Source: Candidatus Methanolliviera sp. GoM_oil | GTDB taxonomy: Archaea > Halobacteriota > Methanoliparia > Methanoliparales > Methanoliparaceae | Direction of reading: 5' to 3' | DNA: 30,589 nucleotides | Assembly: GCA_902158735.1 (NCBI GenBank) | Contig: CABGHG010000001.1 | Location: 1-30,589 of the forward strand | Shown here: piece by piece, positions 1,263 through 30,589 of the stretch | How the letters are laid out: each line of letters starts with the position of its first letter | How positions within the stretch are numbered: the first letter of the stretch is position 1 | Notes under the pieces: generated by a model | What the model was told of the DNA's origin: nothing | The model's input: only the letters and a program-made list of their open reading frames with translations | The model's database searches: none | Translations under genes and position numbers: made by a program

Positions 1263-1286
1263 TCAAAAATCTCCAATTTGCACCAT
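1263..1286 (-). repeat. Monomeric copy of the hairpin-module family; fills the spacer between the mutase subunits
   Basis: Minus strand reads ATGGTGCAAATTGGAGATTTTTGA followed by the small-subunit ATG. GGAGATTTTTGA-ATG is identical to the sequence before rps3 and rpl32e. Confidence 0.75.
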
Positions 1287-1287
1287 C

Positions 1288-2982
1288 TCAAAATATGGGC
1301 GGCTCCCTAAATCTACCAAAGACATCCTGGAGCGCATACATCACCTCTCCCATCGTGGCTTTGGCATTCACCGCCTCATATATATGCTCAAACATCGGTT
1401 GAGGTTCGTCGAATTTATTATCCTGCATCTCCTCTGCCGTCTTTCTTATGGTATCAAGGATAGTATCTATCTTATTACCGTCCCTATTCTCTCTATACTC
1501 CTTCAACCATTTCCTTCTTTTCTCCTCGAGATCCAACGGTATTCTTAGAGGTTCAAACGAATATTCTATCGATTCTGGCTTTATATCATTTACACCAACT
1601 TTGATAATTTCATTCTTCTCGATCTTACCCTGGTATTCCGATGCCGATTTTGCAATCTCCCGCCAGAAGTAGCCATCGAGGATCGCCTTTGTGGCACCTC
1701 CCATCTTCTCGATCTTCTCGATCTCCTTCATCGCTCCTTCTGTCATCTCTCTTGTGAGCCATTCCACATAGTAAGAACCGCCGAGTGGATCAACCGTATC
1801 CGTTGCACCGATCTCGTATGCCAGTATCCTCTGGGTTAAGGTGGCAATATCCGCCGCTTTATCCGTCGGCGTACAGATCGCCTCATCGTAAGAATCTGTG
1901 TGTAAGGATTGGCAACCACCAAGCACCGCTGCCATCCCTTGTATGGCAACCCTTGCAATATTTGTCTCCGGATATTGGTATGTCAAGGTACATCCACCGG
2001 TTTGGACGTGGAACCTACACATAAGTGATTTTGGATTCTTAGCCCCGAACCAGTCTCTCATAATCTCCGCCCAGATCTTTCTCGCCGCCCTAAATTTTGC
2101 GACTTCCTCGAAGAAATTATCATGTGCGTTCCAGAAGAAGCTCAACCTCGGAGCAAAGCTATCCACATCCATCTTCCATCTCTCGGTAAGATACCTGACA
2201 AATTCTACGCCATCTGAAATCGTCCAAGCAAGCTCCTGGAGAGCAGTCGAACCCGCCTCTCTGATGTGGTATCCACTTATGCTGATCGTATTCCAGAGCG
2301 GAGCGTTCTTTGTGCAGTATCTTATCAGATCCGTGTTCAGATAGAGATGTGCCTCGGGTGAATATCTATAATGCTTCTGTGAATAAAAATCCTTCAGTGA
2401 ATCGTTCTGCGTCGTGCCACCGACCTTTGAGATCGGTATTCCTCGCTTCTTTGCGAGTGCAAAGTATGATGCGAGGATATATTCTGCCGGCGTGTTGATC
2501 GTGAAGTTAACGGTGATCTCATCCGGTCTAATCCCCGAGAAGAGGGATTCCATATCCTCAAATGTGCAGACAGATACACCACATCTGCCAACTTCTCCAA
2601 GGGCAAGTGGATCGTCGCTATCTATTCCATTTATCGTTGGAAAATCGAATGCCGTGCTCAACCCTGTTTCTCCGTGTGCCATAAGTTCTTTCCATCTTCT
2701 ATTCGTATCTTCTGGACCTCCTAAACCGGAGAACATCCGTATCGTCCATATCCTTCCTCTGAACATGTTGGGGTATATCCCCCGCGTATATGGATATTCG
2801 CCCGGTCTCCCTATATCTTTATCGTAATTTATCTCTCTTACATCTTCTGGAGTGTAAATCCTCTTTACCGGGACCCAAGACAACGTCTCAAAATCATCTC
2901 TTCTTTCAAGACCTTTCTTGGCCCTCTCCCTCTCTTCCATAGCCTTTTTAATCAGCTTCTTGCCCGCCTCTTCACCTATCAT
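1288..2982 (-). CDS. B12-dependent acyl-CoA mutase large (substrate-binding) subunit, isobutyryl-CoA-mutase-like
   Basis: PGEYPYTRGIYP, WTIRMFSG, GLSTAFDFPT, GTTQND, ISISGYHIREAG, HTDSYDEA, DPLGGSYYVE. Likely start is ATG 2982 (purine-rich GGAGAGG upstream); the ORF track extends it to 3015. Confidence 0.95.
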   Translation of the reverse strand: MIGEEAGKKLIKKAMEERERAKKGLERRDDFETLSWVPVKRIYTPEDVREINYDKDIGRPGEYPYTRGIYPNMFRGRIWTIRMFSGLGGPEDTNRRWKELMAHGETGLSTAFDFPTINGIDSDDPLALGEVGRCGVSVCTFEDMESLFSGIRPDEITVNFTINTPAEYILASYFALAKKRGIPISKVGGTTQNDSLKDFYSQKHYRYSPEAHLYLNTDLIRYCTKNAPLWNTISISGYHIREAGSTALQELAWTISDGVEFVRYLTERWKMDVDSFAPRLSFFWNAHDNFFEEVAKFRAARKIWAEIMRDWFGAKNPKSLMCRFHVQTGGCTLTYQYPETNIARVAIQGMAAVLGGCQSLHTDSYDEAICTPTDKAADIATLTQRILAYEIGATDTVDPLGGSYYVEWLTREMTEGAMKEIEKIEKMGGATKAILDGYFWREIAKSASEYQGKIEKNEIIKVGVNDIKPESIEYSFEPLRIPLDLEEKRRKWLKEYRENRDGNKIDTILDTIRKTAEEMQDNKFDEPQPMFEHIYEAVNAKATMGEVMYALQDVFGRFREPPIF

Positions 2983-3050
2983 CTTCCTCTCCTCTCTAAT
3001 TTCTTTGCATTGCATAGCATAAAAAGATATTTACAGGTTAAATGAGTATA

Positions 3051-3085
3051 GATCCCTCGCCATTTAGGGCGGGGAGTATGCCAGA
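3051..3085 (+). mobile_element. Solitary IS200/IS605-type end hairpin vestige
   Basis: GATCCCTCGCCATTTAGGGCGGGGAGTATGCCA is an imperfect hairpin resembling the remembered IS200/IS605 end pattern ..TCCCCGCCCTTTAGGGCGGGGAG(G/T)ATGTCA. No tnpA or tnpB nearby. Confidence 0.55.
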
Positions 3086-3109
3086 ACGTTGATTCTTCGC
3101 TTACGCGGA

Positions 3110-3137
3110 AAATGGGATGATAGAAATGGGATGATAG
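3110..3137. repeat. Perfect tandem duplication of a 14-mer
   Basis: AAATGGGATGATAG at 3110-3123 and 3124-3137. Confidence 0.9.
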
Positions 3138-3192
3138 TTATCTTTATATGGTATACTATTCAATCCTCAAAACAAAAAGAGAGGATTGATAT

Positions 3193-3366: not shown

Positions 3367-3373
3367 AATTCTT

Positions 3374-3388: not shown

Positions 3389-3408
3389 CTGTCATAGCAT
3401 AATTTTAC

Positions 3409-10111: not shown

Positions 10112-11158
10112 ATGCCAACAAAACATCGCCCAAGGCGTGGATCGCTCGCCTTTAGCCCGAGAAAAAGGGCAAAGAGTGAGATACCACGATATGGGGCATG
10201 GCCACCGTCTAAGAAAGTAAAATTACTTGGATTTGCCGGATACAAAGCTGGGATGACCCACGTTATCATAAAAGATGATCGAGAATATAGTCCAACAAAG
10301 GATGAGGAAATATTCGTCCCGACGACTGTTATAGAGGCTCCAAATATGAAAATAGCCGGTATACGTGCCTATAAAGATACAACTTATGGTCTAAAACCGA
10401 TTGGAGAGGTTTGGACAGTAAATTTGGATAAGGAACTAAAAAGACGGGTGCGTGTCGCAAAAAACCAAGAAAAAAGTGACGAAGAATCGTTTAGGCGATT
10501 GGAGGGAGTAAAAGAGAGCATATCAAAGGTTAGGGCGATCGCCTACACGAGACCAAAGTTGGTCAGCGGAGTTCCAAAGAAGATTCCGGAGATCATGGAG
10601 ATTGAGATAGGCGGAGAAGAGATAGGAGAGATCCTCGAATATTCTAAAAGTCTTTTAGGAAGAGAGATAAAAGTTTCAGAAGTATTAGAAGAGGGAGAAT
10701 TCGTTGATGTCTCTGCTATAACGACGGGAAAGGGTTTTCAGGGTCCTGTAAAGAGGTGGGGCATCATGACGCAGAACGAAAAGCAGGGAAGAGGGGGCAA
10801 GAGGAGACATATTGGAAACTTGGGCCCATGGTTTCCGTCCAGAACCAGGTGGACCGTTCCACAGGCAGGCCAGTTGGGCTATCAGCAGAGGACGGAGTTT
10901 AACAAGGAGATAATATCCATCGGGGAAGATGGGGCAGAGATAATACCGGATGGTGGATTCGTGCATTATGGTGTCGTCAAGAACCCTTATCTTCTCGTCA
11001 AAGGGACCGTTCCCGGACCTAAGAAGAGACTTATAAGGATGAGGGGTGCAATGAGGATGCAATCTGCACAGAAAATTTCCAATATTCACACGCCGGAGGT
11101 CGTTTCTGGCGTCCATAAAGTTGAATATATCAGTGTCAAATCACAGCAGGGTAGATGA
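10112..11158 (+). CDS. rpl3: 50S ribosomal protein uL3
   Basis: HRPRRGSLAFSPRKRA, GFAGYKAGMTH, TTGKGFQGPVKRWG. Confidence 0.98.
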   Translation: MPTKHRPRRGSLAFSPRKRAKSEIPRYGAWPPSKKVKLLGFAGYKAGMTHVIIKDDREYSPTKDEEIFVPTTVIEAPNMKIAGIRAYKDTTYGLKPIGEVWTVNLDKELKRRVRVAKNQEKSDEESFRRLEGVKESISKVRAIAYTRPKLVSGVPKKIPEIMEIEIGGEEIGEILEYSKSLLGREIKVSEVLEEGEFVDVSAITTGKGFQGPVKRWGIMTQNEKQGRGGKRRHIGNLGPWFPSRTRWTVPQAGQLGYQQRTEFNKEIISIGEDGAEIIPDGGFVHYGVVKNPYLLVKGTVPGPKKRLIRMRGAMRMQSAQKISNIHTPEVVSGVHKVEYISVKSQQGR

Positions 11159-11161
11159 TAT

Positions 11162-11926
11162 ATGAACGATGCAAAAAAAGCAAGAATATTTAATATGTCC
11201 GGGGAGGCGGTTGGGGAGATAGATCTGCCCAACACTTTTGGCGAGCCGTACAGGCCCGACATCATCAAAAAAGCCGTTCTCTCCATTCAGTCGAGGAGAT
11301 ACCAGCCACACGGGGTGAAGCCTTATGCAGGCTATGACACGTCCGCAGAATCGTGGGGCGTGGGGCGAGGAGTATCGAGGATTGCAAGGATCAAAAATGG
11401 TAGAAGAGCCGCAAGATCTCCCGGGGCAGTTGGAGGGCGGAGAGCACATCCTCCAAAAGTGGAAAAGAATCTTCTCGAGAAGATAAATAAGAAAGAGATG
11501 AGAAAGGCACTCAGATCTGCAATAGCTGCCACGTCTGATAAGGATCTGGTTATGAGGAGAGGGCACACCTTTGAGGGAGAAGTTCCAATCATTCTAAAAG
11601 ACGAGATAGAGGGATTGAGCAAGACTAAAGAGGTTGAAGAGCTTTTTAAACGTGTTAGGGTTTGGGACGACGTGGAAAGGGCAAAAGAAAAGAAGATAAG
11701 GTCGGGTAAAGGTAAGATGCGGGGTAGAAGATACAAACGAAAGAGGAGTGCCCTCATCATAACGGTAGATGATAAAGGACTTAGGAAAGCATCTAGGAAT
11801 CTGCCTGGGGTCGATTTTTCCCTTCTAAGCGACCTGAATGTAGAGTTACTCGCCCCGGGAACCCACGCCGGAAGATTGACTATCTGGTCAGAGTCGGCGG
11901 TAAAGATGTTAAGGGAGTTTGGATAA
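11162..11926 (+). CDS. rpl4: 50S ribosomal protein uL4
   Basis: SAESWGVGRGVSRIAR, GGRRAHPPKVEK, LLAPGTHAGRLTIWSESA. Confidence 0.98.
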   Translation: MNDAKKARIFNMSGEAVGEIDLPNTFGEPYRPDIIKKAVLSIQSRRYQPHGVKPYAGYDTSAESWGVGRGVSRIARIKNGRRAARSPGAVGGRRAHPPKVEKNLLEKINKKEMRKALRSAIAATSDKDLVMRRGHTFEGEVPIILKDEIEGLSKTKEVEELFKRVRVWDDVERAKEKKIRSGKGKMRGRRYKRKRSALIITVDDKGLRKASRNLPGVDFSLLSDLNVELLAPGTHAGRLTIWSESAVKMLREFG

Positions 11927-11928
11927 AG

Positions 11929-12177
11929 ATGATCTTGAAGAGACCGGTAGCATCGGAGAAGGCGGTACTTGAGATGGAGAAGAACAATGTAGTTTGTTTC
12001 ATCGTCGATAATAATGCGAGAAAAGATAGAATAAAGGACGAATTTGAGGAGCTATACGGCGTGAAAGTAGAAAAAGTTAATACGATATTAACATTTAAGG
12101 GTGAGAAGAAGGCGATGTTGAGACTTTCGGATAAATATAAAGCCGAAGACATCGCTACCAAGCTCGGGATAGTATAA
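11929..12177 (+). CDS. rpl23: 50S ribosomal protein uL23
   Basis: PVASEKA, VKVEKVNT, GEKKAMLRL; operon position. Confidence 0.96.
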   Translation: MILKRPVASEKAVLEMEKNNVVCFIVDNNARKDRIKDEFEELYGVKVEKVNTILTFKGEKKAMLRLSDKYKAEDIATKLGIV

Positions 12178-12179
12178 AT

Positions 12180-12905
12180 ATGGGTAAGCGAATTATCTCT
12201 CAAAATAGGGGAAAGGGTACACCGACATACAGGGCACCACCACATAGGCGTAAAGAGGGATTGATCCACCCCGGGCTCTATGATGGTAAGACTATGAAAG
12301 GAGAGATCATAAAGATTGCTCATGACCCTGCGAGGAGTGCACCGATTGCCAGTGCAGTCTTTGAAGAGGAGAATAAAAGGGAAGAGAAGATGATTTTGGT
12401 TCCAGAAGGGGTCTTTGTCGGACAAAAGATTGTATGCGGAGAGGGGGCACCTTTAGAGGTTGGAAATACCCTTCCCGTTTTGAATATACCTGAGGGAACC
12501 CTAATTTGTAATATAGAATCTAAACCGGGCGATGGTGGAAAATTTGCGAGAGCTTCTGGTGTTTATGGTGCGATCATATCGCACGAGAGAGGAAAGACGA
12601 TCGTTCGGTTACCGAGTGGTGGAACGAAGAAGCTTGATTCTAAGTGCAGGGCAACTATAGGGATCGTCGCTGGAGGGGGCAAGAGAGAGAAGCCATTTTT
12701 AAAGGCTGGAAAGAAACATAACGCCTTAAAAAGTAAGGCACAGAAATATCCGAAGGTCAGTGCCGTTAAGATGAACTCCGTCGATCACCCCTTTGGTGGT
12801 GGAGGTCATAAGCATATCGGCAGACGGAAGTCGGTATCAAGGGGCACTCCGCCTGGTAGAAAGGTCGGGAGCATTAGTCCGAGAAGAACTGGAAGAGGGA
12901 GATGA
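12180..12905 (+). CDS. rpl2: 50S ribosomal protein uL2
   Basis: MGKRIISQNRGKG, HDPARSAPIA, DGGKFARASG, DHPFGGG. Confidence 0.98.
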   Translation: MGKRIISQNRGKGTPTYRAPPHRRKEGLIHPGLYDGKTMKGEIIKIAHDPARSAPIASAVFEEENKREEKMILVPEGVFVGQKIVCGEGAPLEVGNTLPVLNIPEGTLICNIESKPGDGGKFARASGVYGAIISHERGKTIVRLPSGGTKKLDSKCRATIGIVAGGGKREKPFLKAGKKHNALKSKAQKYPKVSAVKMNSVDHPFGGGGHKHIGRRKSVSRGTPPGRKVGSISPRRTGRGR

Positions 12906-12908
12906 AAG

Positions 12909-13313
12909 ATGGTCAAGAAAGATAGAAAAGTTCCAAAGAGGAAAGAATTTACATTTAGGGGTTATAAACAGGATGAATTACAGAAGATGAGCTTAGAGAC
13001 GCTATCAGAGATTTTACCTTCTAGACAGAGAAGGAAGATAAAGAGAGGGTTTAAAGAAGAGGAAAAGACGTTTCTTAAAAAAATCAAGGAGAAAGAAACC
13101 GCTAAGACGCATTTAAGAAATATGATCGTGCTTCCATCGATGATCGGTAAGAAGGTGGGAATACATAATGGTAAGGGCTTCACCTTCGTCGAGATTCAGC
13201 CTGAGATGGTCGGGCACTATCTGGGCGAGTTCGCACTGACAAGAAAAGAGGTGAAGCATGGAAGTGCCGGGCTTGGAGCCACTAAATCGAGCAAGTTTAT
13301 ACCATTGAGATGA
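12909..13313 (+). CDS. rps19: 30S ribosomal protein uS19
   Basis: FTFRGY, KTHLRNMIVLPSMIG, MVGHYLGEFALTRK. Confidence 0.97.
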   Translation: MVKKDRKVPKRKEFTFRGYKQDELQKMSLETLSEILPSRQRRKIKRGFKEEEKTFLKKIKEKETAKTHLRNMIVLPSMIGKKVGIHNGKGFTFVEIQPEMVGHYLGEFALTRKEVKHGSAGLGATKSSKFIPLR

Positions 13314-13325
13314 GGCTAAAGAGAT

Positions 13326-13787
13326 ATGCCGAGCAGACACAGATACTCTATCGATGCAGATCCGGTGCATGGTGTGCATTCTTATGGGCGAGAAATTGCG
13401 ATCTCCCAGAAACATTCTATGGAGATCTGCAGGGAGATTAAGGGAATGAAGGTTGGTACGGCAAAAGGCTATCTAAAAGATGTTATATCACTTAAAAAGC
13501 CTGTCCCTTTCAGGAAACACAACAAAAAGGTAGCACATAGAAAGATGAAGGGGTGGGATGCCGGAAAATTTCCAGAGAAAGCTGCCTCTGGGATATTGAG
13601 ATTACTGGAGAACGCAGAAAAGAATGCAGAATATAAAGGGCTAAATTCCGATGAGATGGTGATAAAGCACATAATGGCAAGCAAGGGGCGGCAGATGATG
13701 GGCTTTTATCCAAGGGCAATGGGTAGAACGACTCCAAAAAGGAAGATCTCTACAAATATTGAGATGATATTGGAAGAGGTGCAATGA
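13326..13787 (+). CDS. rpl22: 50S ribosomal protein uL22
   Basis: ISQKHSMEICREIKG, GKFPEKAA, NAEKNAEYKGL, PRAMGR. Confidence 0.97.
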   Translation: MPSRHRYSIDADPVHGVHSYGREIAISQKHSMEICREIKGMKVGTAKGYLKDVISLKKPVPFRKHNKKVAHRKMKGWDAGKFPEKAASGILRLLENAEKNAEYKGLNSDEMVIKHIMASKGRQMMGFYPRAMGRTTPKRKISTNIEMILEEVQ

Positions 13788-13811
13788 TGTGGGCAAACCG
13801 GAGATTTTTGA
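13787..13811 (+). repeat. Monomeric, degenerate copy of the hairpin-module family; fills the rpl22-rps3 spacer
   Basis: ATGTGGGCAAACCGGAGATTTTTGA then ATG. The first 21 nt match 18587-18607 at 18/21 positions; the last 12 nt are identical to 18671-18682. Confidence 0.8.
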
Positions 13812-14606
13812 ATGCCAGTTGAGAAGAAATTCATCATGGAAGGACTCGAAAAATATAGGTTGAATGAGTTCCTCGCGAAATCTCTCGTGACGGCAGGTTA
13901 TGGTGGAGCAGAATTGAACAGGACACCTCTCGGCATGCAGATAATTGTCTATGTTGAAAAACCGGGATTGGTGATAGGGAGAGGTGGCGAAAAGATAAGA
14001 AAAACCACCGAAGAGATCCGAAAGAAGTTTAATTTAGATAACCCACAGATAGAAGTGGTAGAATCTGAGAATGCACGATTAAATCCCCTAATAATGGCAA
14101 ATAGACTTGCGAATTTGTTGGAGAGAGGGTGGTATTTTAGAAGAGCAGGTCACAACATATTGAGAGAGATAATGGCTGCGGGGGCGCTTGGATGCGAGAT
14201 CGTGCTTGCGGGGAAGCTTACTGGTCCAAGAGCGAGGACGGAAAAATTTGTTAAAGGGTACATGATACATGCTGGAGAACCCGTAAATGATATTGTTAAG
14301 AGGGGATACACCATAGCCAAGAAGAAGCTCGGTGTGATAGGAGTTAATGTACGGATCATTCTTCCTTCCGCACGGTTGCCCGACAAATTCGAAGTTAAGG
14401 AGAAAGAAGAAGTGACGGTAGCAGTTAAGGAGAAAGAAGAAGTGACGGTAGCAGTTAAGGATAAAGAAGAAGTGACGGTAGCAGTTAAGGATAAAGAAGA
14501 AGCTACGGTAGTGGTTAAGGATAAAGAAGGAGCTACGGTAGTGGTTAAGGATAAAGAAGAAGCTACGGTAGCAGTTAAGGATAAAGAAGAAGCGACAGAG
14601 GGATGA
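13812..14606 (+). CDS. rps3: 30S ribosomal protein uS3 with a repetitive C-terminal tail
   Basis: KH motif KPGLVIGRGG, ERGWYFRRAG, GKLTGPRARTEKF, followed by 7 decapeptide repeats. Confidence 0.97.
   Translation: MPVEKKFIMEGLEKYRLNEFLAKSLVTAGYGGAELNRTPLGMQIIVYVEKPGLVIGRGGEKIRKTTEEIRKKFNLDNPQIEVVESENARLNPLIMANRLANLLERGWYFRRAGHNILREIMAAGALGCEIVLAGKLTGPRARTEKFVKGYMIHAGEPVNDIVKRGYTIAKKKLGVIGVNVRIILPSARLPDKFEVKEKEEVTVAVKEKEEVTVAVKDKEEVTVAVKDKEEATVVVKDKEGATVVVKDKEEATVAVKDKEEATEG
14394..14603 (+). repeat. In-frame 30-bp tandem repeat, 7 units, encoding VK(E/D)KE(E/G)(V/A)TV(A/V)
   Basis: Unit GTTAAGGA(G/T)AAAGAAG(A/G)AG(TG/CT)ACGGTAG(CA/TG) starts at 14394, 14424, 14454, 14484, 14514, 14544 and 14574 (last unit diverges at its 3' end). 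Confidence 0.98.
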
Positions 14607-14815
14607 AATTGGCACTGATGAGACCGAGTGAAATAAGAGAGATGAACGAATCTGAGAGAGAAAGAGCGTTAAAGAGGTTTCAATACGATCTTATAAAAGA
14701 GAGGGGCACTATTGCCGCAGGAGGGTCGCTAAAAAATCCTAGTAGGGTGCGGGCGATAAGAAAAGCCATAGCAAGAATAAAAACAATAAATAATGAGCTA
14801 AGGAGAAATAGGTAA
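14603..14815 (+). CDS. rpl29: 50S ribosomal protein uL29
   Basis: RPSEIREM, NPSRVRAIRKAIARIKTI; ATGA overlap with rps3. Confidence 0.95.
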   Translation: MKLALMRPSEIREMNESERERALKRFQYDLIKERGTIAAGGSLKNPSRVRAIRKAIARIKTINNELRRNR

Positions 14816-14820
14816 AAGAG

Positions 14821-15871: not shown

Positions 15872-15883
15872 GGGAGTAATAAG

Positions 15884-16969: not shown

Positions 16970-16970
16970 T

Positions 16971-17483: not shown

Positions 17484-17660
17484 ATGGGAAAAAAACAAAC
17501 CTCAAAGCGATCACGTTCAAAGAAGATGTTTGGCAGAGGGGCAAATGAGTGTAGAAGATGCGGAAGGAAACAGGGACTCATCCGGAGATACGACCTCTAT
17601 CTCTGTAGACAGTGTTTCAGAGAGGTTGCCAGCGAGATGGGATTTAAAAAATATAGGTGA
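17484..17660 (+). CDS. rps14: 30S ribosomal protein uS14 (Zn-binding), 58 aa; missed by the ORF track
   Basis: Manual translation: [58 protein letters not shown]; lies between rpl5 and rps8. Confidence 0.96.
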
Positions 17661-17665
17661 TTATT

Positions 17666-18055
17666 ATGTTACATGATCCACTTTCAGATGCCCTATCATC
17701 TATAAAAAATGCTGATATGGGTGGAAAATTGGAAGGTATTATAAAACCCTCTTCGAAGATGATAGGAAACGTTCTTAAGGTATTCTATGAGCGTGGTTTC
17801 CTAAAGGAGTTCGAGTTCATCGAAGATGGGCATGGGGGTAAATTTGGGGTGAATCTCCTTGGGAAGATAAATGATTGTGGGGTAATCAAACCGAGACACT
17901 CCGTCAAGAGGGGAGAATTTGAGAAGTGGGAGAAGAGATACCTGCCGGCAAAGAACGTTGGCAGTCTGATACTCTCGACCTCGAGAGGTATAATCTCTCA
18001 CCAAGATGCCGAAGAAGCGAAGATCGGTGGGGTGCTTTTAGCATTCGTATATTAA
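17666..18055 (+). CDS. rps8: 30S ribosomal protein uS8
   Basis: DPLSDALSSIKNA, GKINDCGVIKPR, YLPAKNVGSLILSTSRG; AGGTGA SD before ATG 17666. Confidence 0.97.
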   Translation: MLHDPLSDALSSIKNADMGGKLEGIIKPSSKMIGNVLKVFYERGFLKEFEFIEDGHGGKFGVNLLGKINDCGVIKPRHSVKRGEFEKWEKRYLPAKNVGSLILSTSRGIISHQDAEEAKIGGVLLAFVY

Positions 18056-18065
18056 GGTGCCTTTC

Positions 18066-18584
18066 ATGAGAAGAGAGCTAAATATACCAGGGGATGTTGA
18101 AATTACCATCGATAAGGATGTGATAGAAGTGAAGGGGCCAAAAGGGACGCTAAAAGAGAGATTATTCTATATTGGCGTTGAGATATTTAAAGAGGATAAT
18201 AAAGTAATTGTAAGTACCCAAAAAAGCAAAAAAGAACACAGATCCATCATAGGCACGTTTGCATCCCACATAAACAATATGATAGTCGGGATTACGAGTG
18301 GATTCGAGTACAAACTTAAGGTGGTCTATGCACACTTTCCCATCCAACTTGAACTAAAAGATGATAAACTCGTCATAAATAATTTCCTGGGAGAGAAGAA
18401 ACCGAGGGTGGCCAATATCCTTGGGGATGCAAAGGTGAAGATAGATAAGGATACTATAACGGTTACTGGGACAGCTAAGGAAGAGGTTGGACAGACCGCC
18501 GCTAATATGGAACAAGGCACCAAGATCAGAAGAAGGGATCCAAGGGTCTTTCAAGATGGTATCTACCTCATAAGTAGGGGATAG
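18066..18584 (+). CDS. rpl6: 50S ribosomal protein uL6
   Basis: VKGPKG, VYAHFP, NFLGEK, RDPRVFQDGIY; ATG 18066 preferred over GTG 18057. Confidence 0.97.
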   Translation: MRRELNIPGDVEITIDKDVIEVKGPKGTLKERLFYIGVEIFKEDNKVIVSTQKSKKEHRSIIGTFASHINNMIVGITSGFEYKLKVVYAHFPIQLELKDDKLVINNFLGEKKPRVANILGDAKVKIDKDTITVTGTAKEEVGQTAANMEQGTKIRRRDPRVFQDGIYLISRG

Positions 18585-18586
18585 TC

Positions 18587-18682
18587 ATGTGGGTAAATCG
18601 AAGATTTGCATATGCTCAAGCAAAGCTTGGCATGCCAAAAATCCAAAGGATTTTTGAGCACTCAAAAATCGGAGATTTTTGA
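18587..18682 (+). repeat. 96-bp tetrameric array of triloop hairpins between rpl6 and rpl32e
   Basis: AAATC-GAA-GATTT (18595-18607), CAAGC-AAA-GCTTG (18617-18629), CAAAAATCC-AAA-GGATTTTTG (18636-18656), TCAAAAATC-GGA-GATTTTTGA (18662-18682), plus the palindrome TTGGCATGCCAA (18627-18638). Confidence 0.9.
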
Positions 18683-19069
18683 ATGGGAGAAGAACAGAGA
18701 TTATTGGGAGTTCGCAGCACACAAAAGCATAAAAAGCCAAGATTCTCCAGATATGGCTCTAAATATAAAAAAAGAGTTAAAGAAGCGTGGAGAAGGCCGA
18801 GAGGGAGACAAAATAAACAGAGGCGTGGAAAAGTATCAAAACCGGCGGCTGTTAAGGTAGGATATGGTTCTCCTGCACTTGTTAGGGGGTTACACCCTTC
18901 TGGACGTGAAGACACGCTCGTAAGAAACATTAAAGAGCTGGAAAAAGTCGATCCTGAAAAACAGGTGGCTAGAATCGCGAGAACCGTCGGCAGAAAAAAA
19001 AGATTGGAGATAGAGGAGAGAGCAGAAGAGATTGGGATAAAGATCATTAATATGGTGAAGGAACTATGA
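18683..19069 (+). CDS. rpl32e: 50S ribosomal protein eL32
   Basis: KKPRFSR, WRRPRGRQNKQR, GYGSP, RGLHPSG. Confidence 0.97.
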   Translation: MGEEQRLLGVRSTQKHKKPRFSRYGSKYKKRVKEAWRRPRGRQNKQRRGKVSKPAAVKVGYGSPALVRGLHPSGREDTLVRNIKELEKVDPEKQVARIARTVGRKKRLEIEERAEEIGIKIINMVKEL

Positions 19070-19515
19070 CAGATCTTTCCATGCAGAAAAATCTTGCAGC
19101 AAAAGTGATGAAGATTGGAAAAAATAGGGTTAGACTCGACCCGGAAAAGGGCGAGGATATCGCCGTTGCAATAACGAGAGATGATATAAGAGGGCTGATA
19201 GAGGATGGTGCTATCAAAAAAATTCAAAAGAAAGGGGTGAGCAGAGGAAGAGCAAGAGAAAGAGATGCAAAAAGGGCGTATGGCCACAGAAAAGGTCATG
19301 GAAAGAGAAAAGGCGCCAAAAATGCTCGTTCTTCCAAGAAAGGAAGATGGATGAAGACCGTGAGGGCACAGAGAAGGTATTTGAGAGGGCTAAGAGACGG
19401 AGAGGAGATAGACAGATCAGATTACAGGATGCTTTACAACAAATCTAAGGGCGGAGAATTTAGGAGTATCAGGCTCTTGGATACATACATTAAGATGAAT
19501 GATATTAGAAGGTGA
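19066..19515 (+). CDS. rpl19e: 50S ribosomal protein eL19
   Basis: MTDLSMQKNLAA, AITRDDIRGLI, GHRKGHGKRKG, WMKTVRAQR. Confidence 0.97.
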   Translation: MTDLSMQKNLAAKVMKIGKNRVRLDPEKGEDIAVAITRDDIRGLIEDGAIKKIQKKGVSRGRARERDAKRAYGHRKGHGKRKGAKNARSSKKGRWMKTVRAQRRYLRGLRDGEEIDRSDYRMLYNKSKGGEFRSIRLLDTYIKMNDIRR

Positions 19516-19520
19516 CTTAT

Positions 19521-20036
19521 ATGGCAAAAGGCCCAAGATATAGGGTTCCCTTTAGGAGGAGAAGGGAAAATAAGACCAACTATCCAAAAAGATTGAAGTT
19601 ATTGTCGTCAAAAAGACCGCGGATTGTTGTGAGAAAAACGAATAAAAATATGATCATCCAGCTCGTTGGATTTAGTAATAAAGGAGATATCACCTCGATC
19701 TCGGCCATTACGGGAGAACTAATAAAGTATGGATATGATCTTCCCACAGGCAATATTCCCGCTGCTTACCTAACCGGGCTCCTCTTTGGTTTAAAAGCAA
19801 AAGCGAGATTGGAAGGAATAGATAGATCTATATTAGACACCGGTTTAAATACATCGGTTAAAGGATCGAGGATATATGCCTCACTAAAAGGCATGCTTGA
19901 TGCAGGAATGAGCATTCCGCATGATCCAAAAATTTTGCCTGACGAAAGAACAGTTGAGGGAGAACGGATGGGGGTTCAAGAGAAGATTGGAAAAGTGAAG
20001 GAGACTGTTATATCATCTTTTGGGGAATATCAATGA
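19521..20036 (+). CDS. rpl18: 50S ribosomal protein uL18
   Basis: [37 protein letters not shown]; AGGTGA SD before ATG 19521. Confidence 0.97.
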
Positions 20037-20698
20037 AGAGAAGATCGTCGAAGAAGGGGGGAAAGAAGCAAAAAAGATTTAGCCCTGTGCGGAAAGACTG
20101 GATTCCCAGGACAAGGCTTGGTCATCTTGTGCATGAAAAAGAGATACGTGATATAGATGAGGCATTAACGATTGATTATCCATTAAAAGAGGTGGAGATA
20201 GTCGATCTTCTGCTTCCAGATCTGGAAGATGAGGTTCTCGATATAAATATGGTTCAGAGGATGACGGATTCTGGTAGAAGAGTAAAATTTACTGCCACGA
20301 TCGTCGTTGGGAATAAGAGAGGATATGTGGGCGTCGGTGTCGGAAAGGATGCCGAGGTTGGGAATGCAATACGAAAAGGTGCCAATGCGGCAAAACTCAA
20401 TATAGTTAAAGTTATGCGGGGGTGCGGTTCATGGGAGTGCATGTGCGGAACCCCACACAGCGTTCCGTACAAAATTAAGGGTAAGTCTGGTAGTGTTAAA
20501 ATAACGCTGATTCCTGCACCAAAAGGTCTCGGTTTAGCTTCTGGGGAAAAAGCGAAGAAGGTTTTGGAGTTGGCCGGAATAAAGGATGTCTGGACAAGAA
20601 CGGAAGGTAGCACGAGAACAAGCATGAATTTTGCCAAGGCGACGTATAACGCCCTTAAAAACTTATCAACGGTCAAAGGTGTAAATCTGGAAGGGTAA
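20033..20698 (+). CDS. rps5: 30S ribosomal protein uS5
   Basis: [38 protein letters not shown]. Confidence 0.98.
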
Positions 20699-20701
20699 AA
20701 A

Positions 20702-21163
20702 ATGTACGCAGTAGTGAGACTTCGTGGGAGTGTAAACGTCAGAAGAGGAATAAAGGATACGTTGAAGATGATGAGGCTTCATAAAGTGAACCATTGTATC
20801 TTTTTAGGCGAGAATAAATATTCTAATGGAATGCTCCAAAAAGTTAAGGATTATGTGGCATGGGGTGAGATAGACAGAGACACCTTTAAATTGATCTTGG
20901 AGGAGAGGGGAAGAATGATAGGGGGAAAGAGGTTAAAGGAACACTCCTTCAAAGAAGACTCAGATTTTCACTCTTTGGACGAATTTGCAGATGCTCTCTT
21001 CACCGGTAAAATGAATCTAAAGGATGTTTCATATTTAAAACCGGTCTTTAGATTACATCCTCCCAGGAAAGGGCACAATGGCATAAAAAAGAGTTTTAAG
21101 GAGGGGGGAGAGCTGGGTTACCACGGTGATCAAATAAATAAACTTCTTACTCAGATGAGGTGA
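20702..21163 (+). CDS. rpl30: 50S ribosomal protein uL30 (archaeal long form)
   Basis: MYAVVRLRG, GMLQKVKDYVAWGE, FRLHPPRKG, GELGYHG. Confidence 0.97.
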   Translation: MYAVVRLRGSVNVRRGIKDTLKMMRLHKVNHCIFLGENKYSNGMLQKVKDYVAWGEIDRDTFKLILEERGRMIGGKRLKEHSFKEDSDFHSLDEFADALFTGKMNLKDVSYLKPVFRLHPPRKGHNGIKKSFKEGGELGYHGDQINKLLTQMR

Positions 21164-21171
21164 TCTAATCA

Positions 21172-21624
21172 ATGGTAAAAGATAAGACGAGTAAGTATAG
21201 AGGGTCCAGGACTTGCGGTGGAGGAAATGCCAAGAAACGCAGAGGGGGCGGGAGCAAAGGAGGAAGGGGGAATGCAGGGCCATTCAAACATCATTTTGTT
21301 AGAACTATACTTAGGGGGGTTAGAAGAGGGAAATATGGTTTTAAGAGGCCCCCGGCAGTTATAGAAGAGAAAAATACCATCAATGTTGGAAAATTGGATG
21401 AGATAGCCCAAAATCTCGTCTTTAGGGGGCTGGCCACAGAAGAAGGCAGCTTTATAAACGTGGATATGGAGAATCTTGGGATAGATAAAGTCCTCGGTTC
21501 TGGAAGCATTAGAAAGAATAGAAAGTTACGTATCACATCCAAGGCGTTCTCGGTGAAAGCCGTAGAAAAGATTGAGGAAAGCGGAGGAGAGGTCATCTTT
21601 GCCGAGGCAAATATGCCAGAATAG
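21172..21624 (+). CDS. rpl15: 50S ribosomal protein uL15
   Basis: RGSRTCGGG, RRGGGSKGGRGNAG, GKYGF, KVLGSG, AVEKIEESGG. Confidence 0.97.
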   Translation: MVKDKTSKYRGSRTCGGGNAKKRRGGGSKGGRGNAGPFKHHFVRTILRGVRRGKYGFKRPPAVIEEKNTINVGKLDEIAQNLVFRGLATEEGSFINVDMENLGIDKVLGSGSIRKNRKLRITSKAFSVKAVEKIEESGGEVIFAEANMPE

Positions 21625-21629
21625 AGACA

Positions 21630-23111
21630 ATGTCTGACACACAGCTAAAATACATCTTTGAGCCTCTTCTAAGAAAAATTCCGGCTGTGGAACGGCCATT
21701 TGGTCATGTTCACTTCAAGGTTAAGCTGGGGTGGACGCTTGGGATACTCGTCCTCTACTTTGCGCTGATGGAAGTGCCACTCTTTGGGCTACAGCCAGAG
21801 TTAAGAGATTTCTTCGGAGATTTTAGGGCTATAATGGGTGGAGCTCAAGGGTCCATCATACAACTCGGCATAGGGCCGATCGTGATGGCATCCATAATCT
21901 TACAGCTTTTGGTCGGGGCAAAAGTTATAGATCTCAACTTGGGTGACCCAAGAGACCAGGCTATTTACCAGGGAATGCAAAAGATTCTCGTCCTCGTCAT
22001 GATCGTGGCAGAGAGCCTTCCACTAATATTGGGAGGAGCCATAAGACCAGATCTGCTTCTCGCATCTAACCTTGGAATTTCCCCTAATTTCCTGCTCTTC
22101 ATAATATTCATACAGATGGCGATAGGTGGCATCCTGATAATGCTCATGGATGAGGTCGTATCCAAGTGGGGAATAGGTTCCGGTGTAGGTTTATTCATAC
22201 TTGCAGGCGTCTCTCAATCTCTCGTAGTCGGAATGTTCAATCCGATAAATAGAGCGGGTGTTATATGGAGATGGGGCGAGATGGCAAAGGTTGGTACTTC
22301 CGCAATCCTTTCGAGAGAGATGCTCCTCGGACAAGGACAAATTTTAGCCTTGATAAGCACGATAATCGTATTTTTGGTGGTGATATACGCGGAGGGTATG
22401 AGGGTGGAGATTCCGCTCTCTCATCACGCGGTCAGGGGTGCGAGAGGCAGGTATCCCATAAAGCTCATCTATGCAAGCGTTCTCCCTATGATCCTCGTTA
22501 GGTCATTACAGGCCGTCGTACGGGTCTTTGGAACGCTCTTATGGAACTCTAAAATTCCTCTCATCGGGCATAACTCCTGGATAGGTGCTTATGCGGAGAA
22601 CAACGTCCCTATCTCTGGATTGATGTACTATCTAAACCCACTCAGCGGTCCCAATGATTGGATACCGTCCCGTGTAGTTCATGAATTCCAGCTGATGGGC
22701 GAGATTCCTCCACAGACATGGCAGATCATTCTGCACCTCTTTACGGATGCCACCGTTCTGATCGTTGGAGGAATCATATTCGCGATATTTTGGGTTGAGG
22801 TGAGCAATATGAATGCAGAAGCCGTGGCAAATCAGATCCATAGCTCTGGACTGCAAATACCGGGTTTCAGGAGGAGTCCAACGATGCTCAAAAAGAGATT
22901 AGAAAATTATATACCACAGATTACCGTTTTAGGAGGAGCAACGATAGGTGCACTTACCCTATTTGCGAGCTTATTTGGCCTAATTGGGGGGGTGACCGGA
23001 ACTGGAATGCTCCTTGCCGTAGGCATAGCATATAAGCTGTATGAAGATATGGCATCTCAACAGATGATGGAGATGTATCCCATGATGAGGAGATTTTTGG
23101 GGACGGAGTGA
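21630..23111 (+). CDS. secY: Protein translocase subunit SecY/Sec61alpha
   Basis: KVKLGWT, LGIGPIVMASIILQLL, DEVVSKWGIGSGVGLFI, YPIKLIYASVLP, GLQIPGFR; about 10 hydrophobic segments. Confidence 0.98.
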   Translation: MSDTQLKYIFEPLLRKIPAVERPFGHVHFKVKLGWTLGILVLYFALMEVPLFGLQPELRDFFGDFRAIMGGAQGSIIQLGIGPIVMASIILQLLVGAKVIDLNLGDPRDQAIYQGMQKILVLVMIVAESLPLILGGAIRPDLLLASNLGISPNFLLFIIFIQMAIGGILIMLMDEVVSKWGIGSGVGLFILAGVSQSLVVGMFNPINRAGVIWRWGEMAKVGTSAILSREMLLGQGQILALISTIIVFLVVIYAEGMRVEIPLSHHAVRGARGRYPIKLIYASVLPMILVRSLQAVVRVFGTLLWNSKIPLIGHNSWIGAYAENNVPISGLMYYLNPLSGPNDWIPSRVVHEFQLMGEIPPQTWQIILHLFTDATVLIVGGIIFAIFWVEVSNMNAEAVANQIHSSGLQIPGFRRSPTMLKKRLENYIPQITVLGGATIGALTLFASLFGLIGGVTGTGMLLAVGIAYKLYEDMASQQMMEMYPMMRRFLGTE

Positions 23112-23116
23112 GTTTT

Positions 23117-23770
23117 ATGGATATAAAGGATGTAGCGGGAAAGATCGCTCTTGTGGTCGGTTTCGGGTTGATGTTCGGCATAATGATCGGGGGTCAGGGA
23201 TTTAGAGATTCCGTAGGACTCTCTGTAAACTTCATCTTTCACCCATTGGCCGATATTCTAACCGCGAGCAATCTACACATCTTGATCCTGATCCTTTCTG
23301 CCCTGACAGGTCTTTATACCGCATTGATCCAGAAGTATACGATAGACTGGGATCTCATGAAGAGATTCCAGACGAAGATGAAGAAGTTCCAGGTGGAATA
23401 CAAAAAGGCTCAACTATCCGGGGATAAGGAAAGATTGATGAAGTTGAGTGAAGAGAGCAAAAAAACGATGGGGGAGAGCGTAGAGATGCAGAAGCAACAG
23501 CTTAAGCCTATGGGGTACATATCCATACTGACCATTCCGCTCTTCATGTGGCTCTACGTATATTTGAGTGAGGTGTACGGCGTCTATGGATGGGGTGCGG
23601 TGAGTAATTCTATCGCCGGTCCAAGCTTTATCTTCCCCTTCTTCGGTAGTAAACTACTCGTCGATACGGTATTTTGGGGCTTTCAGTGGTGGTTACTTTG
23701 GTATTTCGTCTGTTCCCTCTTCTTCGGGCAGATATTCATGAAGGCATTAAATACGGGTATGAGCATTTGA
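23117..23770 (+). CDS. DUF106 / EMC3-TMCO1 (Oxa1 superfamily) membrane protein
   Basis: TM helix, then coiled coil (DWDLMKRFQ...), then KPMGYISILTIPLFMW and C-terminal WLLWYFVCS; usual position after secY; GGAGTGA SD before ATG 23117. Confidence 0.88.
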   Translation: MDIKDVAGKIALVVGFGLMFGIMIGGQGFRDSVGLSVNFIFHPLADILTASNLHILILILSALTGLYTALIQKYTIDWDLMKRFQTKMKKFQVEYKKAQLSGDKERLMKLSEESKKTMGESVEMQKQQLKPMGYISILTIPLFMWLYVYLSEVYGVYGWGAVSNSIAGPSFIFPFFGSKLLVDTVFWGFQWWLLWYFVCSLFFGQIFMKALNTGMSI

Positions 23771-26275: not shown

Positions 26276-26592
26276 TTATCCAGGATCTAAAAAGGGAATG
26301 AACTTCAAGAATACTTCAAGCAGCGTTTTCTCAGGTTTTTTGAGCATTCCAGCTCTCCTCATTGCAGAGAGCTTTATATGATTTTCAATTCCCTTATCCT
26401 TCCGAAGTTGTTTCTTTCTGTGCGTCTTGAGACTTGTTGAATAATAGTTCTCAAGTAAATTATTAGTGGCAGGAGCTCCTTTCACGAAGTAGAAGCTGTG
26501 AGGTACTTCCAGTTCTTCTTTATCATCTCCAATCTCTTTCTAACAGGTGTGCTAAATGAATAGAACTCCTTCATAAGATCATCGAAGGTCCT
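26276..26592 (-). pseudogene. Truncated, frameshifted transposase C-terminus (resembles methanogen ISNCY-type transposases, from memory)
   Basis: Three frames join as RTFDDLMKEFYSFSTPVRKRLEMI / KKNWKYLTA / FYFVKGAPATNNLLENYYSTSLKTHRKKQLRKDKGIENHIKLSAMRRAG...FIPFLDPG*. At least two frameshifts; N-terminus absent. Confidence 0.7.
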
Positions 26593-26632
26593 CAAAAATC
26601 TTCGATTTTTGGGATCCCACGACGAAGTCGTC
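26592..26632 (-). repeat. Dimeric hairpin element at the 5' break of the transposase fragment
   Basis: CAAAAATC-TTC-GATTTTTG (26593-26611), palindrome TGGGATCCCA (26610-26619), ACGAC-GAA-GTCGT (26619-26631); same layout as 18617-18658. Confidence 0.8.
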
Positions 26633-26833
26633 AGGAGAAAAAGAACAAACCATCGCTAGATTTTCGGACTGTGCCGGTTTGAGAACAGCTGTTTTCAGTG
26701 CTTTAGGTGCGATAACCTTCAACATTTCTTCCTTATGCATTCTTCGATTCATAAATGGATATTCTGCACATAGGCAGTGCGACTGCTATGCTGATTACAA
26801 GGTTTAAATATTTTCTTTACCCTAAAAAGAGCC

Positions 26834-27805: not shown

Positions 27806-27853
27806 TTGAAAATCTCCGATTTTCAAGTGTGCAAATCGAAGATTTGCACTCAT
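27806..27853 (-). repeat. 48-bp dimeric hairpin element directly upstream of the marker-2 ATG
   Basis: Two perfect 9-bp stems: TTGAAAATC-TCC-GATTTTCAA (27806-27826) and GTGCAAATC-GAA-GATTTGCAC (27829-27849). Confidence 0.9.
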
Positions 27854-29261: not shown

Positions 29262-29378
29262 TCTTCGATGACCATCAAGATAGAAAAATGGGCTTGTTCT
29301 CGCTCAAAGATCAAAAACCTGATCTTTGGAAGCACCCGCATATTTTTGTATAGTACTCTGTAAATATCCCATAATAAG

Positions 29379-29484
29379 TGCCGGGGGCGGGATTCGAGCC
29401 CGCGACCTTCAGATATCCCAGGCGTCTCTTCCACACACAAGCACCCTATGAGTCTGACGCCCTAACCAGCTAGGCCACCCCGGC
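29379..29484 (-). tRNA. Elongator tRNA-Met (CAT) with a 32-nt intron (29415-29446); CCA not encoded
   Basis: Acceptor stem GCCGGGG/CCCCGGC-A (G1-C72, so not initiator), anticodon stem TCAGA/TCTGA, anticodon at 29450-29448, intron at 37/38 forming a canonical bulge-helix-bulge (CUCA/UGGG central helix). Confidence 0.95.
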
Positions 29485-29560
29485 AACGGCGAATAATTAA
29501 GGATCGTTAAAATAATTTTCTATGCCGTTGATTTACAGCACTGATCTTCCTATATTACAA

Positions 29561-30070
29561 TTATGGAATCTCTAATCTCCATTTGCAATAACAGTCATCC
29601 GGGTGATCATCCGGGGGGCACACAATGCAGCTCAATTTGGCATCAGAGTCGATTTCGCGGGCAAAATTTGTGAAGTAAAGTATTCCCGGTTCTTTGCACG
29701 GAAATTCACTCTTACCCCATTTAATTCTTGCTTTTTGTGCGGAGCACGATGGATTGCAAAGCACCACATGTTTCTCCGTCTGTTCCAAAACTTCAAATTC
29801 CTCCACAAAATTTTCCGGGACAAACCTAAATGCATTAACGAACCCAGGGATACCTTCTCCTATGTTAAAAATCTTTTTAATTCTTTTCGCGTGTGATCTT
29901 CCAACATCGCCGATTAATTTAAGTTCCAATTTACATGCGGCATCAAGCCCATATTCATCCTCTACGGCAGATCTCCACCTCTGGTGAAGATTCCCCCAAA
30001 ACCACATCATAGTCTCTATTAAATTCTCCATCTGTGCTGTCGAAAGACCTTCCAATTTTTCCGATCCCAT
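29561..30070 (-). CDS. Cys-rich hypothetical protein, DUF6125/V4R-like from memory
   Basis: 169 aa; CSAQKAR, EFPCKE, LSCIVCPPDDHPDDCYCKWRL pattern. Confidence 0.65.
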   Translation of the reverse strand: MGSEKLEGLSTAQMENLIETMMWFWGNLHQRWRSAVEDEYGLDAACKLELKLIGDVGRSHAKRIKKIFNIGEGIPGFVNAFRFVPENFVEEFEVLEQTEKHVVLCNPSCSAQKARIKWGKSEFPCKEPGILYFTNFAREIDSDAKLSCIVCPPDDHPDDCYCKWRLEIP

Positions 30071-30097
30071 TTTATATACACATCCTGTTTAAATTAT

Positions 30098-30589
30098 TTA
30101 AGTGATGTTCTCTATAACCTTCTTCAAAGAGCGTTCTATCTCCTCTCTACATCTTAAATAGCTTGAGTCGTCTTTACCGAACGGATCAGCGATGTCATCA
30201 TCAAAGATCGAAGATTTATAATTATCGTCATCTCTGACGAATTCCTTTAATGTATATACTTCTTTTCCTTTTGCCTCTTTAAACTCTAGCACCTTATCCT
30301 TCTGCTCTCGCGTCATCGATAAAATTAGATCTGATTGCTCTATTAAATCTCTGTGCCATCTTAATGATGTCGTGCGGAAATTTTCAAAGAATTCGTTATA
30401 GAATCCATCATTGTCAAGGGCGAGCCTTGCGTCTAAGGACATAAGTCCACCATTCCTCGCGGCAGAGGAAACCCCTGCCGATCGAACCTCCATGCCATCA
30501 GGTATCATCTTTTTGAGCATGGCTTCTGCCATTGGGCTTCTACATGTGTTTGCACTGCAGACGATCAATATGGACTTATATTCCTTGTG
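30098..30589 (-). CDS. Low-molecular-weight phosphatase (LMW-PTP/YwlE family), probably 5'-partial
   Basis: CSANTCRS (CX5R), SAGVS, DLILSMT, TLKEF, DIADPFG. The frame stays open to the window edge (HKEYKSILIVC), so the start is probably outside the window. Confidence 0.9.
   Translation of the reverse strand, partial: HKEYKSILIVCSANTCRSPMAEAMLKKMIPDGMEVRSAGVSSAARNGGLMSLDARLALDNDGFYNEFFENFRTTSLRWHRDLIEQSDLILSMTREQKDKVLEFKEAKGKEVYTLKEFVRDDDNYKSSIFDDDIADPFGKDDSSYLRCREEIERSLKKVIENIT

Follow-up and report, generated by a model that had tools for sequence, protein, structure and literature searches.

Repetitive extragenic palindromic (REP) sequences of bacteria are short palindromes that occur in high copy and in regular clusters, mostly between genes and sometimes within them (PMC3733652, PMC2817692). 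The Rickettsia palindromic elements (RPEs) were the first for which in-frame insertion of palindromic DNA into proteins was described (PMC10969869); for bacterial REPs it has been described more rarely (PMC3733652). Here we describe a family of short hairpin modules in the archaeon Candidatus Methanolliviera sp. GoM_oil, found in a window that comprises one whole 30.6-kb contig (CABGHG010000001.1, 30,589 nucleotides) of assembly GCA_902158735.1 (1.70 Mb in 218 contigs, 75% complete, 42.6% GC; referred to as G000). Methanolliviera, of the class Methanoliparia, is an alkane-associated, methanogen-related archaeon of oil seeps. The SecY protein encoded in the window has 97-98% identity to its counterparts in two Candidatus Methanolliviera genomes assembled from metagenomes (GoM_asphalt and NM1b). 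The window carries the archaeal ribosomal-protein superoperon from rpl3 to adk (positions 10112-23770, plus strand). An earlier inspection of the bare nucleotide sequence (the sequence-only reading) had proposed that triloop hairpins of about 24 nt, occurring as 1-, 2- and 4-mers, form a REP-like selfish or regulatory family that has invaded even this operon. Our analysis indicates that the family quite probably consists of non-autonomous miniature palindromic insertion elements.

The described sequences are present at all six main sites of the window, and the dispersed family proved larger than had been noted. Its core, AAATC-N3-GATTT (AAATCNNNGATTT), has 241 matches in G000 (1.70 Mb) vs 1 for a reversed control. 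Hairpins that pair perfectly over at least 8 bp and have a 3-nt loop number 254 in the genome vs 47 in shuffled sequence. Loops of 2, 4 and 6 nt showed no excess, and those of 5 nt gave 125 hairpins vs 46 in shuffles. A looser detector, applied genome-wide, found ~330 modules in ~222 arrays, comprised of 1 (135 arrays), 2 (74), 3 (7), 4 (5) or 6 (1) modules, which agrees with the picture of 1-, 2- and 4-mers. The suggested 24-nt periodicity was also recovered: the distance between neighbouring copies has a sharp maximum at 24 nt (31 pairs), and 45 close pairs are spaced by 23-25 nt across the genome. Chance is excluded by the genome-wide test; in the window alone, a core pattern with one mismatch gave 8 matches vs 3.8 +/- 1.9 in shuffles, which is a marginal excess. 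Fourteen arrays lie at contig edges. Among contigs read from four metagenome runs, there is a tendency in every run to stop at module sites, and the word depth in these runs rises ~3- to 11-fold over 18622-18835, as expected of a high-copy repeat.

The unit is a hairpin of ~21 nt. Its stem of 8-9 bp has an invariant inner core, which is AAATC/GATTT or closely similar to it, and a C-G pair closes the triloop, which reads RRA. Linkers of 3-5 nt bring the period to ~24 nt, and most mobile elements consist of two hairpins (48-51 nt) and belong to several subtypes. For the analysis of pairing and loops, the 241 core copies were oriented by their purine-rich loop strand. Stem pairs 6, 7 and 8 are of Watson-Crick type in 81%, 73% and 71% of these copies, respectively, vs 36-39% expected from the column composition, each with at least three types of pair (A-T, C-G, G-C, T-A), i.e. 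with covariation, and base pairing disappears from pair 9 outward. Because these outer stem pairs covary, what is selected is a hairpin of 8-9 bp whose triloop reads C-(RRA)-G on one strand, and not a fixed-sequence operator. The triloops on the purine-rich strand are mainly GAA (123), AAA (54) and GGA (45), which are single transitions apart.

Folds predicted for both RNA and DNA contain four hairpins at 18587-18682 and two each at 27806-27853, 15026-15073 and 26592-26636, with z-scores of -4.1 to -5.8 (-2.1/-3.5 for 26592-26636). No hairpin was predicted for the single modules 1263-1286 and 13787-13811 (0 and -2.5 kcal/mol, z > 0), both of which combine a GCAAAT-type left arm with a ATTTTTGA-type right arm; these are sequence-related but degenerate or hybrid-arm copies. 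The hairpin stems that had been proposed for the main sites therefore stand for the four multi-hairpin sites and not for the two singles.

The mobility of the modules became apparent from comparison of G000 with two congeneric genomes (G001 and G002, ~5% diverged), with metagenome runs (two of which are designated X5 and X10) and with a tar-pit population represented by a 2.8-kb contig. The rpl6/rpl32e junction contains 96 nt of module sequence in G000, 48 nt in G001, G002 and X10, and 0 nt in the tar-pit contig, which joins 18586 directly to 18683 (with the ATG as a 3-nt ambiguity), the empty state being stop-TC-ATG. The array at this junction grew from 0 to 48 to 96 nt, and the second step was a 48-nt insert nested between two hairpins. 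G002 alone carries a 47-nt two-hairpin element placed exactly at the TAATG overlap of rps17 and rpl14, and a 51-nt in-frame insert in rpl18 (window position 19816/19817) is found only in G001, X5 and X10. The proposed comparison of filled and empty sites between close relatives thus revealed presence/absence polymorphism and, at rpl6/rpl32e, the rpl14 start and rpl18, bore out the suggested invasion of the ribosomal superoperon as one that occurred by insertion.

The same behaviour was observed elsewhere in the genome. Alignment of G000 with parts of G001 and G002 over 577 kb revealed indels that carry hairpins. Their most frequent length is 48 nt (8 cases), and others measure 51, 27 and 24 nt; whole multi-module arrays (96 and ~120-130 nt) also vary from one species to another. 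Within G000, the eight full paralogues of TnpB are distinguished by inserts of 51, 48, 48 and 54 nt; in one TnpB copy, the two hairpins of a 48-nt element have a 51-nt element nested exactly between them. Insertion takes place at the DNA level and in both orientations, and arrays are enlarged by copies that nest beside existing hairpins. Three cleanly resolved 51-nt inserts generated no target duplication, and each of them follows a G (junction G/TAGT, the slash marking the insertion point) that belongs to the target. This 51-nt subtype usually starts with TAGT, preceded by G in ~14 of 24 copies by our own count, and the other subtypes lack such a tag. The sample of resolved insertion sites is small: the 51-nt type lies after G in 3/3, and the start-codon type described below lies at or after ATG in every case.

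Copies with a GGA loop constitute a distinct subtype. An ATG or GTG is located exactly 4 nt after GATTT in 32 of the 45 GGA copies, vs 7/123 with GAA and 8/54 with AAA loops. The GGA copies of this kind place GGAG 8 nt upstream of the ATG/GTG, and since the 16S rRNA ends at its 3' side with GGATCACCTCCT, GGAG is a proper Shine-Dalgarno core. ORFs (open reading frames) of at least 40 codons with coding potential are opened by 19 GGA start-codon copies, vs 3/354 for all other loops. Relative to the adjacent gene, the opposite-strand tally of GGA loops is none. GAA loops are found on the same and the opposite strand in 36/33 cases upstream of genes and 22/22 downstream, and AAA copies likewise occur on either strand; this strand-neutral placement contradicts a purely regulatory reading of the family.

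In every resolved start-codon insertion, the ATG and 0-10 further bases are present at both ends of the element, and the old ATG is left upstream. In most start-codon copies, by our own reading, the new ATG directly follows an in-frame TGA, TAA or TAG. We infer that the GGA subtype lands at a start codon and rebuilds the translation start, which would make its insertion near-neutral. The subtype may survive because a working start is restored, and it would replace tightly coupled stop and start codons by a short upstream ORF followed by a hairpin whose loop holds the ribosome-binding site. It may represent a natural portable translation-initiation cassette, with a possible effect on ribosomal-protein stoichiometry. 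Species-specific gene-start inserts with different hairpins were also observed in the relatives (L039 11609-11677 and L061 609-709, compared with contigs C53 and C86 of G000). An example of such another gene-start hairpin is GGTGCTACC-TTCG-GGTAGCACC, followed by AAAACAAAAA, and the genus may contain one or more additional families of small hairpins.

The REP-like, extragenic location implied by the sequence-only reading is wrong for about a quarter of the arrays, which lie in frame within genes. Uninterrupted reading frames contain 47 of the 208 scorable arrays, the other 161 being non-coding, according to a coding-potential test (codon log-likelihood of 40-codon flanks; in-frame median 8, off-frame 99th percentile 1.9) that still lets in some chance single hairpins; ~25 of the 47 are clear family members, encoding typical peptides (KSKIFE, NRRFL, ENQRFS and similar). 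Among the proteins whose genes carry such arrays are UvrC, a class I aminoacyl-tRNA synthetase, CobN, GatB, TruD, an RNA methyltransferase, an ABC ATPase, a member of the eRF1 family, a UDP-glucose dehydrogenase and a Na/Ca exchanger. A 48-nt insert (16 in-frame codons) in the gene of the RNase P protein Rpp29 is shared by all three Methanolliviera genomes, and neither the sister genus nor any of six further families has it. An AlphaFold model places it in a surface loop of low pLDDT (predicted local distance difference test) that lies between strands 59-64 and 90-94; the rest of the barrel is predicted with confidence. The GatB insert is likewise restricted to the genus, and each species shows a different decay of its second hairpin.

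All resolved intragenic inserts keep the frame (48, 51, 54 nt). The unit equals 8 codons and is largely stop-free, so that copies in protein loops would simply be translated and persist. Several TnpB ORFs of G000 hold one to four hairpin inserts yet stay open, and TnpB tolerates 16-33 extra residues at four positions. Two paralogous proteins of ~530 aa (contig C42, 1986-3584, and contig C4, near 7275), with an HNH motif and arginine-rich stretches, look IscB-like by eye; both contain an in-frame hairpin module near residue 76. The GatB orthologue of G001 (C24:10555-12015, L099) has one in-frame TGA outside the hairpin insert.

The family members and weaker candidates of the window are listed in Table 1. 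The module at 1263-1286 fills the gap between the stop codon of an acyl-CoA mutase gene (1288) and the ATG of the next gene (1262). The module at 13788-13811 carries GGAG 8 nt before the ATG, and its core reads AAACC, which is the canonical AAATC in G002; in the sister genus, the rpl22/rps3 junction is TGAATG (stop abutting start) without a module. Within the rpl6/rpl32e array, module 1 follows the ATG at 18587, which is duplicated at the end of the array, and the insert at 18611-18658 is private to G000, being absent from G001, G002 and X10. The subtype found at 26592-26636 has also been inserted in TnpB paralogues and GatB. The element at 27806-27853 is 92% identical to that at the rpl14 start of G002, and it precedes a gene termed marker 2 in the earlier reading, whose true start is likely the ATG at 27808-27806. 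Family membership could not be confirmed for two candidates that had been put forward as weak. The palindrome at 15884-15908 is kept in G002, and the N-terminus of rpl24 exceeds that of the sister genus by 3 codons; the sequence at 30201-30217, of the same length in G001, is probably a chance occurrence or a decayed copy.

Table 1. Hairpin modules and candidate modules of the 30,589-nucleotide window
Feature	Position	Strand	Remarks
Start-codon single, 24 nt: ATG-GTGCAAATTGGAGATTTTTGA-ATG	1263-1286	-	Degenerate, hybrid arms, no stable hairpin
Start-codon single, 24 nt, between rpl22 stop and rps3 ATG (13812)	13788-13811	+	
Rpp29 two-hairpin insert: TTGCGAATC-TTC-GATTCGCAA + TTGAAGATG-GAA-CATTTTCAA	15030-15073	+	In ORF 14821-15162
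6-bp AGATC-GAA-GATCT palindrome in first rpl24 codons	15884-15908	+	Weak candidate, membership unproven
rpl6/rpl32e module 1: GGGTAAATC-GAA-GATTTGCA	18587-18610	+	
rpl6/rpl32e modules 2+3: CAAGC-AAA-GCTTG, CCAAAAATCC-AAA-GGATTTTTGG	18611-18658	+	48-nt nested insert
rpl6/rpl32e module 4, start-codon type: TCAAAAATC-GGA-GATTTTTGA	18659-18682	+	Abuts rpl32e ATG (18683)
Two-hairpin element of another subtype: TCAAAAATC-TTC-GATTTTTGG + GATC + CACGAC-GAAG-TCGTC	26592-26636	.	Convergent intergenic region
Two-hairpin start-codon element: ATGA-GTGCAAATC-TTC-GATTTGCAC-AC-TTGAAAATC-GGA-GATTTTCAA-ATG	27806-27853	-	
AGATCGAAGATTT within low-molecular-weight phosphatase gene	30201-30217	.	Weak candidate, only 3 bp pair

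Two further observations concern other parts of the window. A search of Rfam identified a 106-nt tRNA (59 bits) at 29379-29484 on the minus strand, for which ARAGORN gave no tRNA; it is probably an intron-containing archaeal tRNA. The 3' end of rps3 (14393-14603) contains a 30-bp minisatellite whose copy number is unlike that of G002 (several 30-nt indels, staggered self-matches).

We also searched for an enzyme that might mobilise the modules. G000 contains two intact IS605 units with tnpA and tnpB (PF01797 matches; contigs C130 and C113, loci L001 and L002) and at least six more full TnpB genes (contigs C25, C34, C48, C63, C94 and C163). The end hairpins of the resident IS605 elements are GC-rich (CCCCTTCC-GTAA-GGGAGGGG and CCCCATCC-GTAA-GGGTGGGG), in contrast to the AAATC-RRA-GATTT modules. 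No REP-associated tyrosine transposase (RAYT) gene and no transposase flanked by modules was found in G000 and its relatives, which are incomplete metagenome-assembled genomes (MAGs); the ORFs flanked by arrays on both sides are only ordinary genes and one IS630-like N-terminal fragment. G001, at 91% completeness, has 278 copies and no match to Y1 transposases. The link to a RAYT or another HUH enzyme, as had been envisaged, was therefore not borne out, the only Y1 genes being those of IS605 tnpA-tnpB units with unlike end hairpins.

A tandem-module signature (ATC-N3-GAT, 14-16 nt, ATC-N3-GAT) was sought in 401 genomes of the phylum. It is abundant only in the Methanolliviera genomes (57, 70 and 39) and in g25 (78 and 54), a hairpin-rich genus unrelated to Methanolliviera (genomes G031 and G195), and all other genomes contain at most 9. 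The g25 loci that were read have ~54% GC and encode acidic-looking proteins, and modules are located inside tnpA, inside TnpB and inside the end hairpin of the insertion sequence (IS) itself. In G195, two IS200-like tnpA genes (contigs C7 and C49; L080 and L082) are interrupted after YHFVWC by the same 4-module array of 96 nt, which introduces a stop, and a 2-module element lies inside the GC-rich end hairpin of the IS. A candidate REPtron in G031, in which a 6-module array follows the only tnpA at a distance of 25 nt, was dropped, as G195 shows such arrays to be insertions into tnpA and the IS end hairpin. The g25 IS is thus a victim of the modules, and not evidently their driver. One g25 element and the 51-nt element of Methanolliviera have the same GTATCCCAAAAA linker, which suggests common descent or transfer; the oriented linker TATCCCAAAAA has only 4 matches on the complete G031 chromosome, too few for an assessment of strand bias. 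A genome of the same phylum, G034, has 111 AAATC-N3-GATTT matches and 24 Y1 transposase matches without the tandem-module signature. It probably does not hold the Methanolliviera family and has a different IS-linked repeat.

The interpretation of the modules as non-autonomous insertion elements has to be weighed against several observations. Start-codon insertions repeat 3-13 nt, always including the ATG, at both ends; these repeats could stem from duplication of the target or from microhomology, or could represent an end that belongs to the element itself. The boundaries of the elements lack full uniformity, the survey of genes described above identified no mobiliser, the end hairpins of the resident IS605 elements being unrelated to the modules, and in 41 genomes the counts of Y1 genes and of hairpins show no clean relation. 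The genome itself is a 75%-complete MAG, and both the translation of coding copies and the use of the supplied ribosome-binding site are presumed from sequence. Conservation is also mild: in 55 modules with an aligned orthologue (G000 vs G001/G002), differences amount to 3.2% in stems and 5.1% in non-coding flanks, in a set selected as good hairpins in G000, so that the stem value is biased downward. Selection on the hairpin after insertion is at most weak. The 11% divergence of the loops rests on small counts (18 changes); such fast divergence fits the exposure of loop bases in hairpins extruded in vivo, and may reflect their deamination.

It is very unlikely that the hairpins are primarily host signals (operators, RNA-protein or processing sites, translational hairpins or bidirectional terminators) that are selected and not mobile. 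The strictly sense orientation of GGA copies at a fixed distance from start codons would suit such a role, as would the slightly higher conservation of stems than of flanks, the prevalence of arrays with a coding flank only on the gene-start side (60 vs 27 at gene ends) and, for a terminator, the T5 runs of the arms. However, GAA and AAA copies, which make up ~80% of the family, favour neither strand relative to genes, about a quarter of the arrays lie within the coding sequence of unrelated proteins, and their presence varies between species only ~5% diverged, even at ribosomal junctions. Moreover, the fixed GatB copy has a decaying second hairpin, and the covariation of the outer stem does not fit a sequence-specific operator. 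Removal of the intragenic copies from mRNA as mini-introns, which would leave the proteins unaffected, is hardly credible. Splicing at bulge-helix-bulge motifs is known for a few archaeal mRNAs, but every resolved intragenic copy keeps the frame (see above), and the modules are plain stems with triloops, lacking bulge-helix-bulge geometry.

Spread without a dedicated transposase, in the manner of a dispersed minisatellite that expands in 24-nt steps through hairpin-promoted slippage, template switching or microhomology gene conversion, is also unlikely. It would account for arrays that grow by 24 or 48 nt beside existing modules, for the 3-13 nt that start-codon junctions have in common with the element end, and for boundaries varying by a few nucleotides. 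It does not readily account for new copies at module-free, dissimilar sites (the Rpp29, rpl18 and GatB loops and the rps17/rpl14 TAATG overlap), for the recurrence of an identical-ended 51-nt two-hairpin element at unrelated sites, or for a related element with the GTATCCCAAAAA linker in a distant lineage. The hairpin ends, insertion in either strand, lack of duplication and G/TAGT junction fit best with single-strand transposition of the HUH type. As insertion elements, the modules would move through a single-stranded hairpin intermediate handled in trans, and the mover would most likely be a strand-transferase of the IS200/IS605/RAYT kind (Y1 HUH) or a functionally similar enzyme. The REP-like selfish-element reading is largely upheld: a mobile, dispersed family held together by structure is retained. 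No gene supporting its RAYT/HUH link was found in the genomes surveyed, its extragenic location is wrong for about a quarter of the arrays, and a purely regulatory role is contradicted by the placement of the GAA and AAA copies.

A more far-reaching proposal, which we regard as tentative, is that these modules represent an undescribed class of archaeal mobile DNA, whose single-stranded triloop hairpin has evolved to be harmless wherever it lands and is moved by a new enzyme or by an IS605-type TnpA acting on unlike hairpins. If this is true, its unit of ~21-24 nt would be among the shortest known to us and, at 8 nearly stop-free codons, would be suited to coding sites; one subtype would target the start codon, bringing its own stop, ribosome-binding site and ATG; and hairpins could rewire translational coupling even in the ribosomal superoperon. 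The mobiliser is a concrete target for enzyme discovery. Inserts in the ribosomal operon, RNase P and tRNA amidotransferase provide natural data on the tolerance of 8-17 residues and 24-96 bases. The repeats also matter for the annotation of Methanoliparia genomes, in that they may break assemblies and lengthen predicted proteins.

Rfam yielded no match to the modules in the window (only the tRNA), and in the searchable literature on Methanoliparia repeats, archaeal REP/RAYT systems and hairpin elements carrying ribosome-binding sites we found no description of the family. [quoted passage not shown] The palindrome-associated transposable elements (PATEs) of the IS200/IS605 group, and IS608, are alike in their hairpin ends and may be so in their absence of duplication (as in the few resolved 51-nt inserts) and fixed short neighbouring sequence (G, or the ATG, in the Methanolliviera modules) (PMC6006769). 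Known PATEs are far longer, with hairpins like those of resident IS200/IS605 elements, which can act in trans, a resemblance that the Methanolliviera modules do not share.

The RPEs are similar in being selfish palindromes that enter unrelated housekeeping genes in frame and are tolerated there as additional residues of loops (PMC10969869, PMC3733652), and in-frame inserts in functional genes and surface loops occur here in Rpp29, GatB, TnpB and, in G001, rpl18. RPEs are, however, bacterial and non-modular, with elements of ~100-150 bp, whereas the Methanolliviera elements (24-51 nt, mostly 48-51 nt) are built from hairpin units of 24 nt and are found more often in intergenic regions and at start codons. 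With REPs, and with the bacterial interspersed mosaic elements (BIMEs) and REP doublets forming hairpins (REPINs) composed of them, the family shares hairpins in more than 100 copies per genome (241 core copies and ~330 modules, in the form of short, 20-40 nt, imperfect palindromes), regular clusters, larger structures, variability between close relatives and possibly, in one subtype, a TAGT/GTAG-like head, REPs having a conserved GTAG or CGTC tag at one end of the palindrome. It differs in that no RAYT gene, which in REP systems is typically single-copy and flanked by the repeats, was found in the Methanolliviera and g25 genomes (incomplete MAGs), and in being archaeal, with AT-rich triloop stems, a fixed ~24-nt period and a large share of modules in frame (47/208 scorable arrays), in addition to one subtype that builds a ribosome-binding site and start codon. 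With insertion polymorphism observed in a methanogen-related archaeon, REP-like and RPE-like selfish hairpins would no longer be bacterial only, and what is notable in this family is its 24-nt modular build, its start-codon cassette and the stepwise 0/48/96 series in the ribosomal operon.

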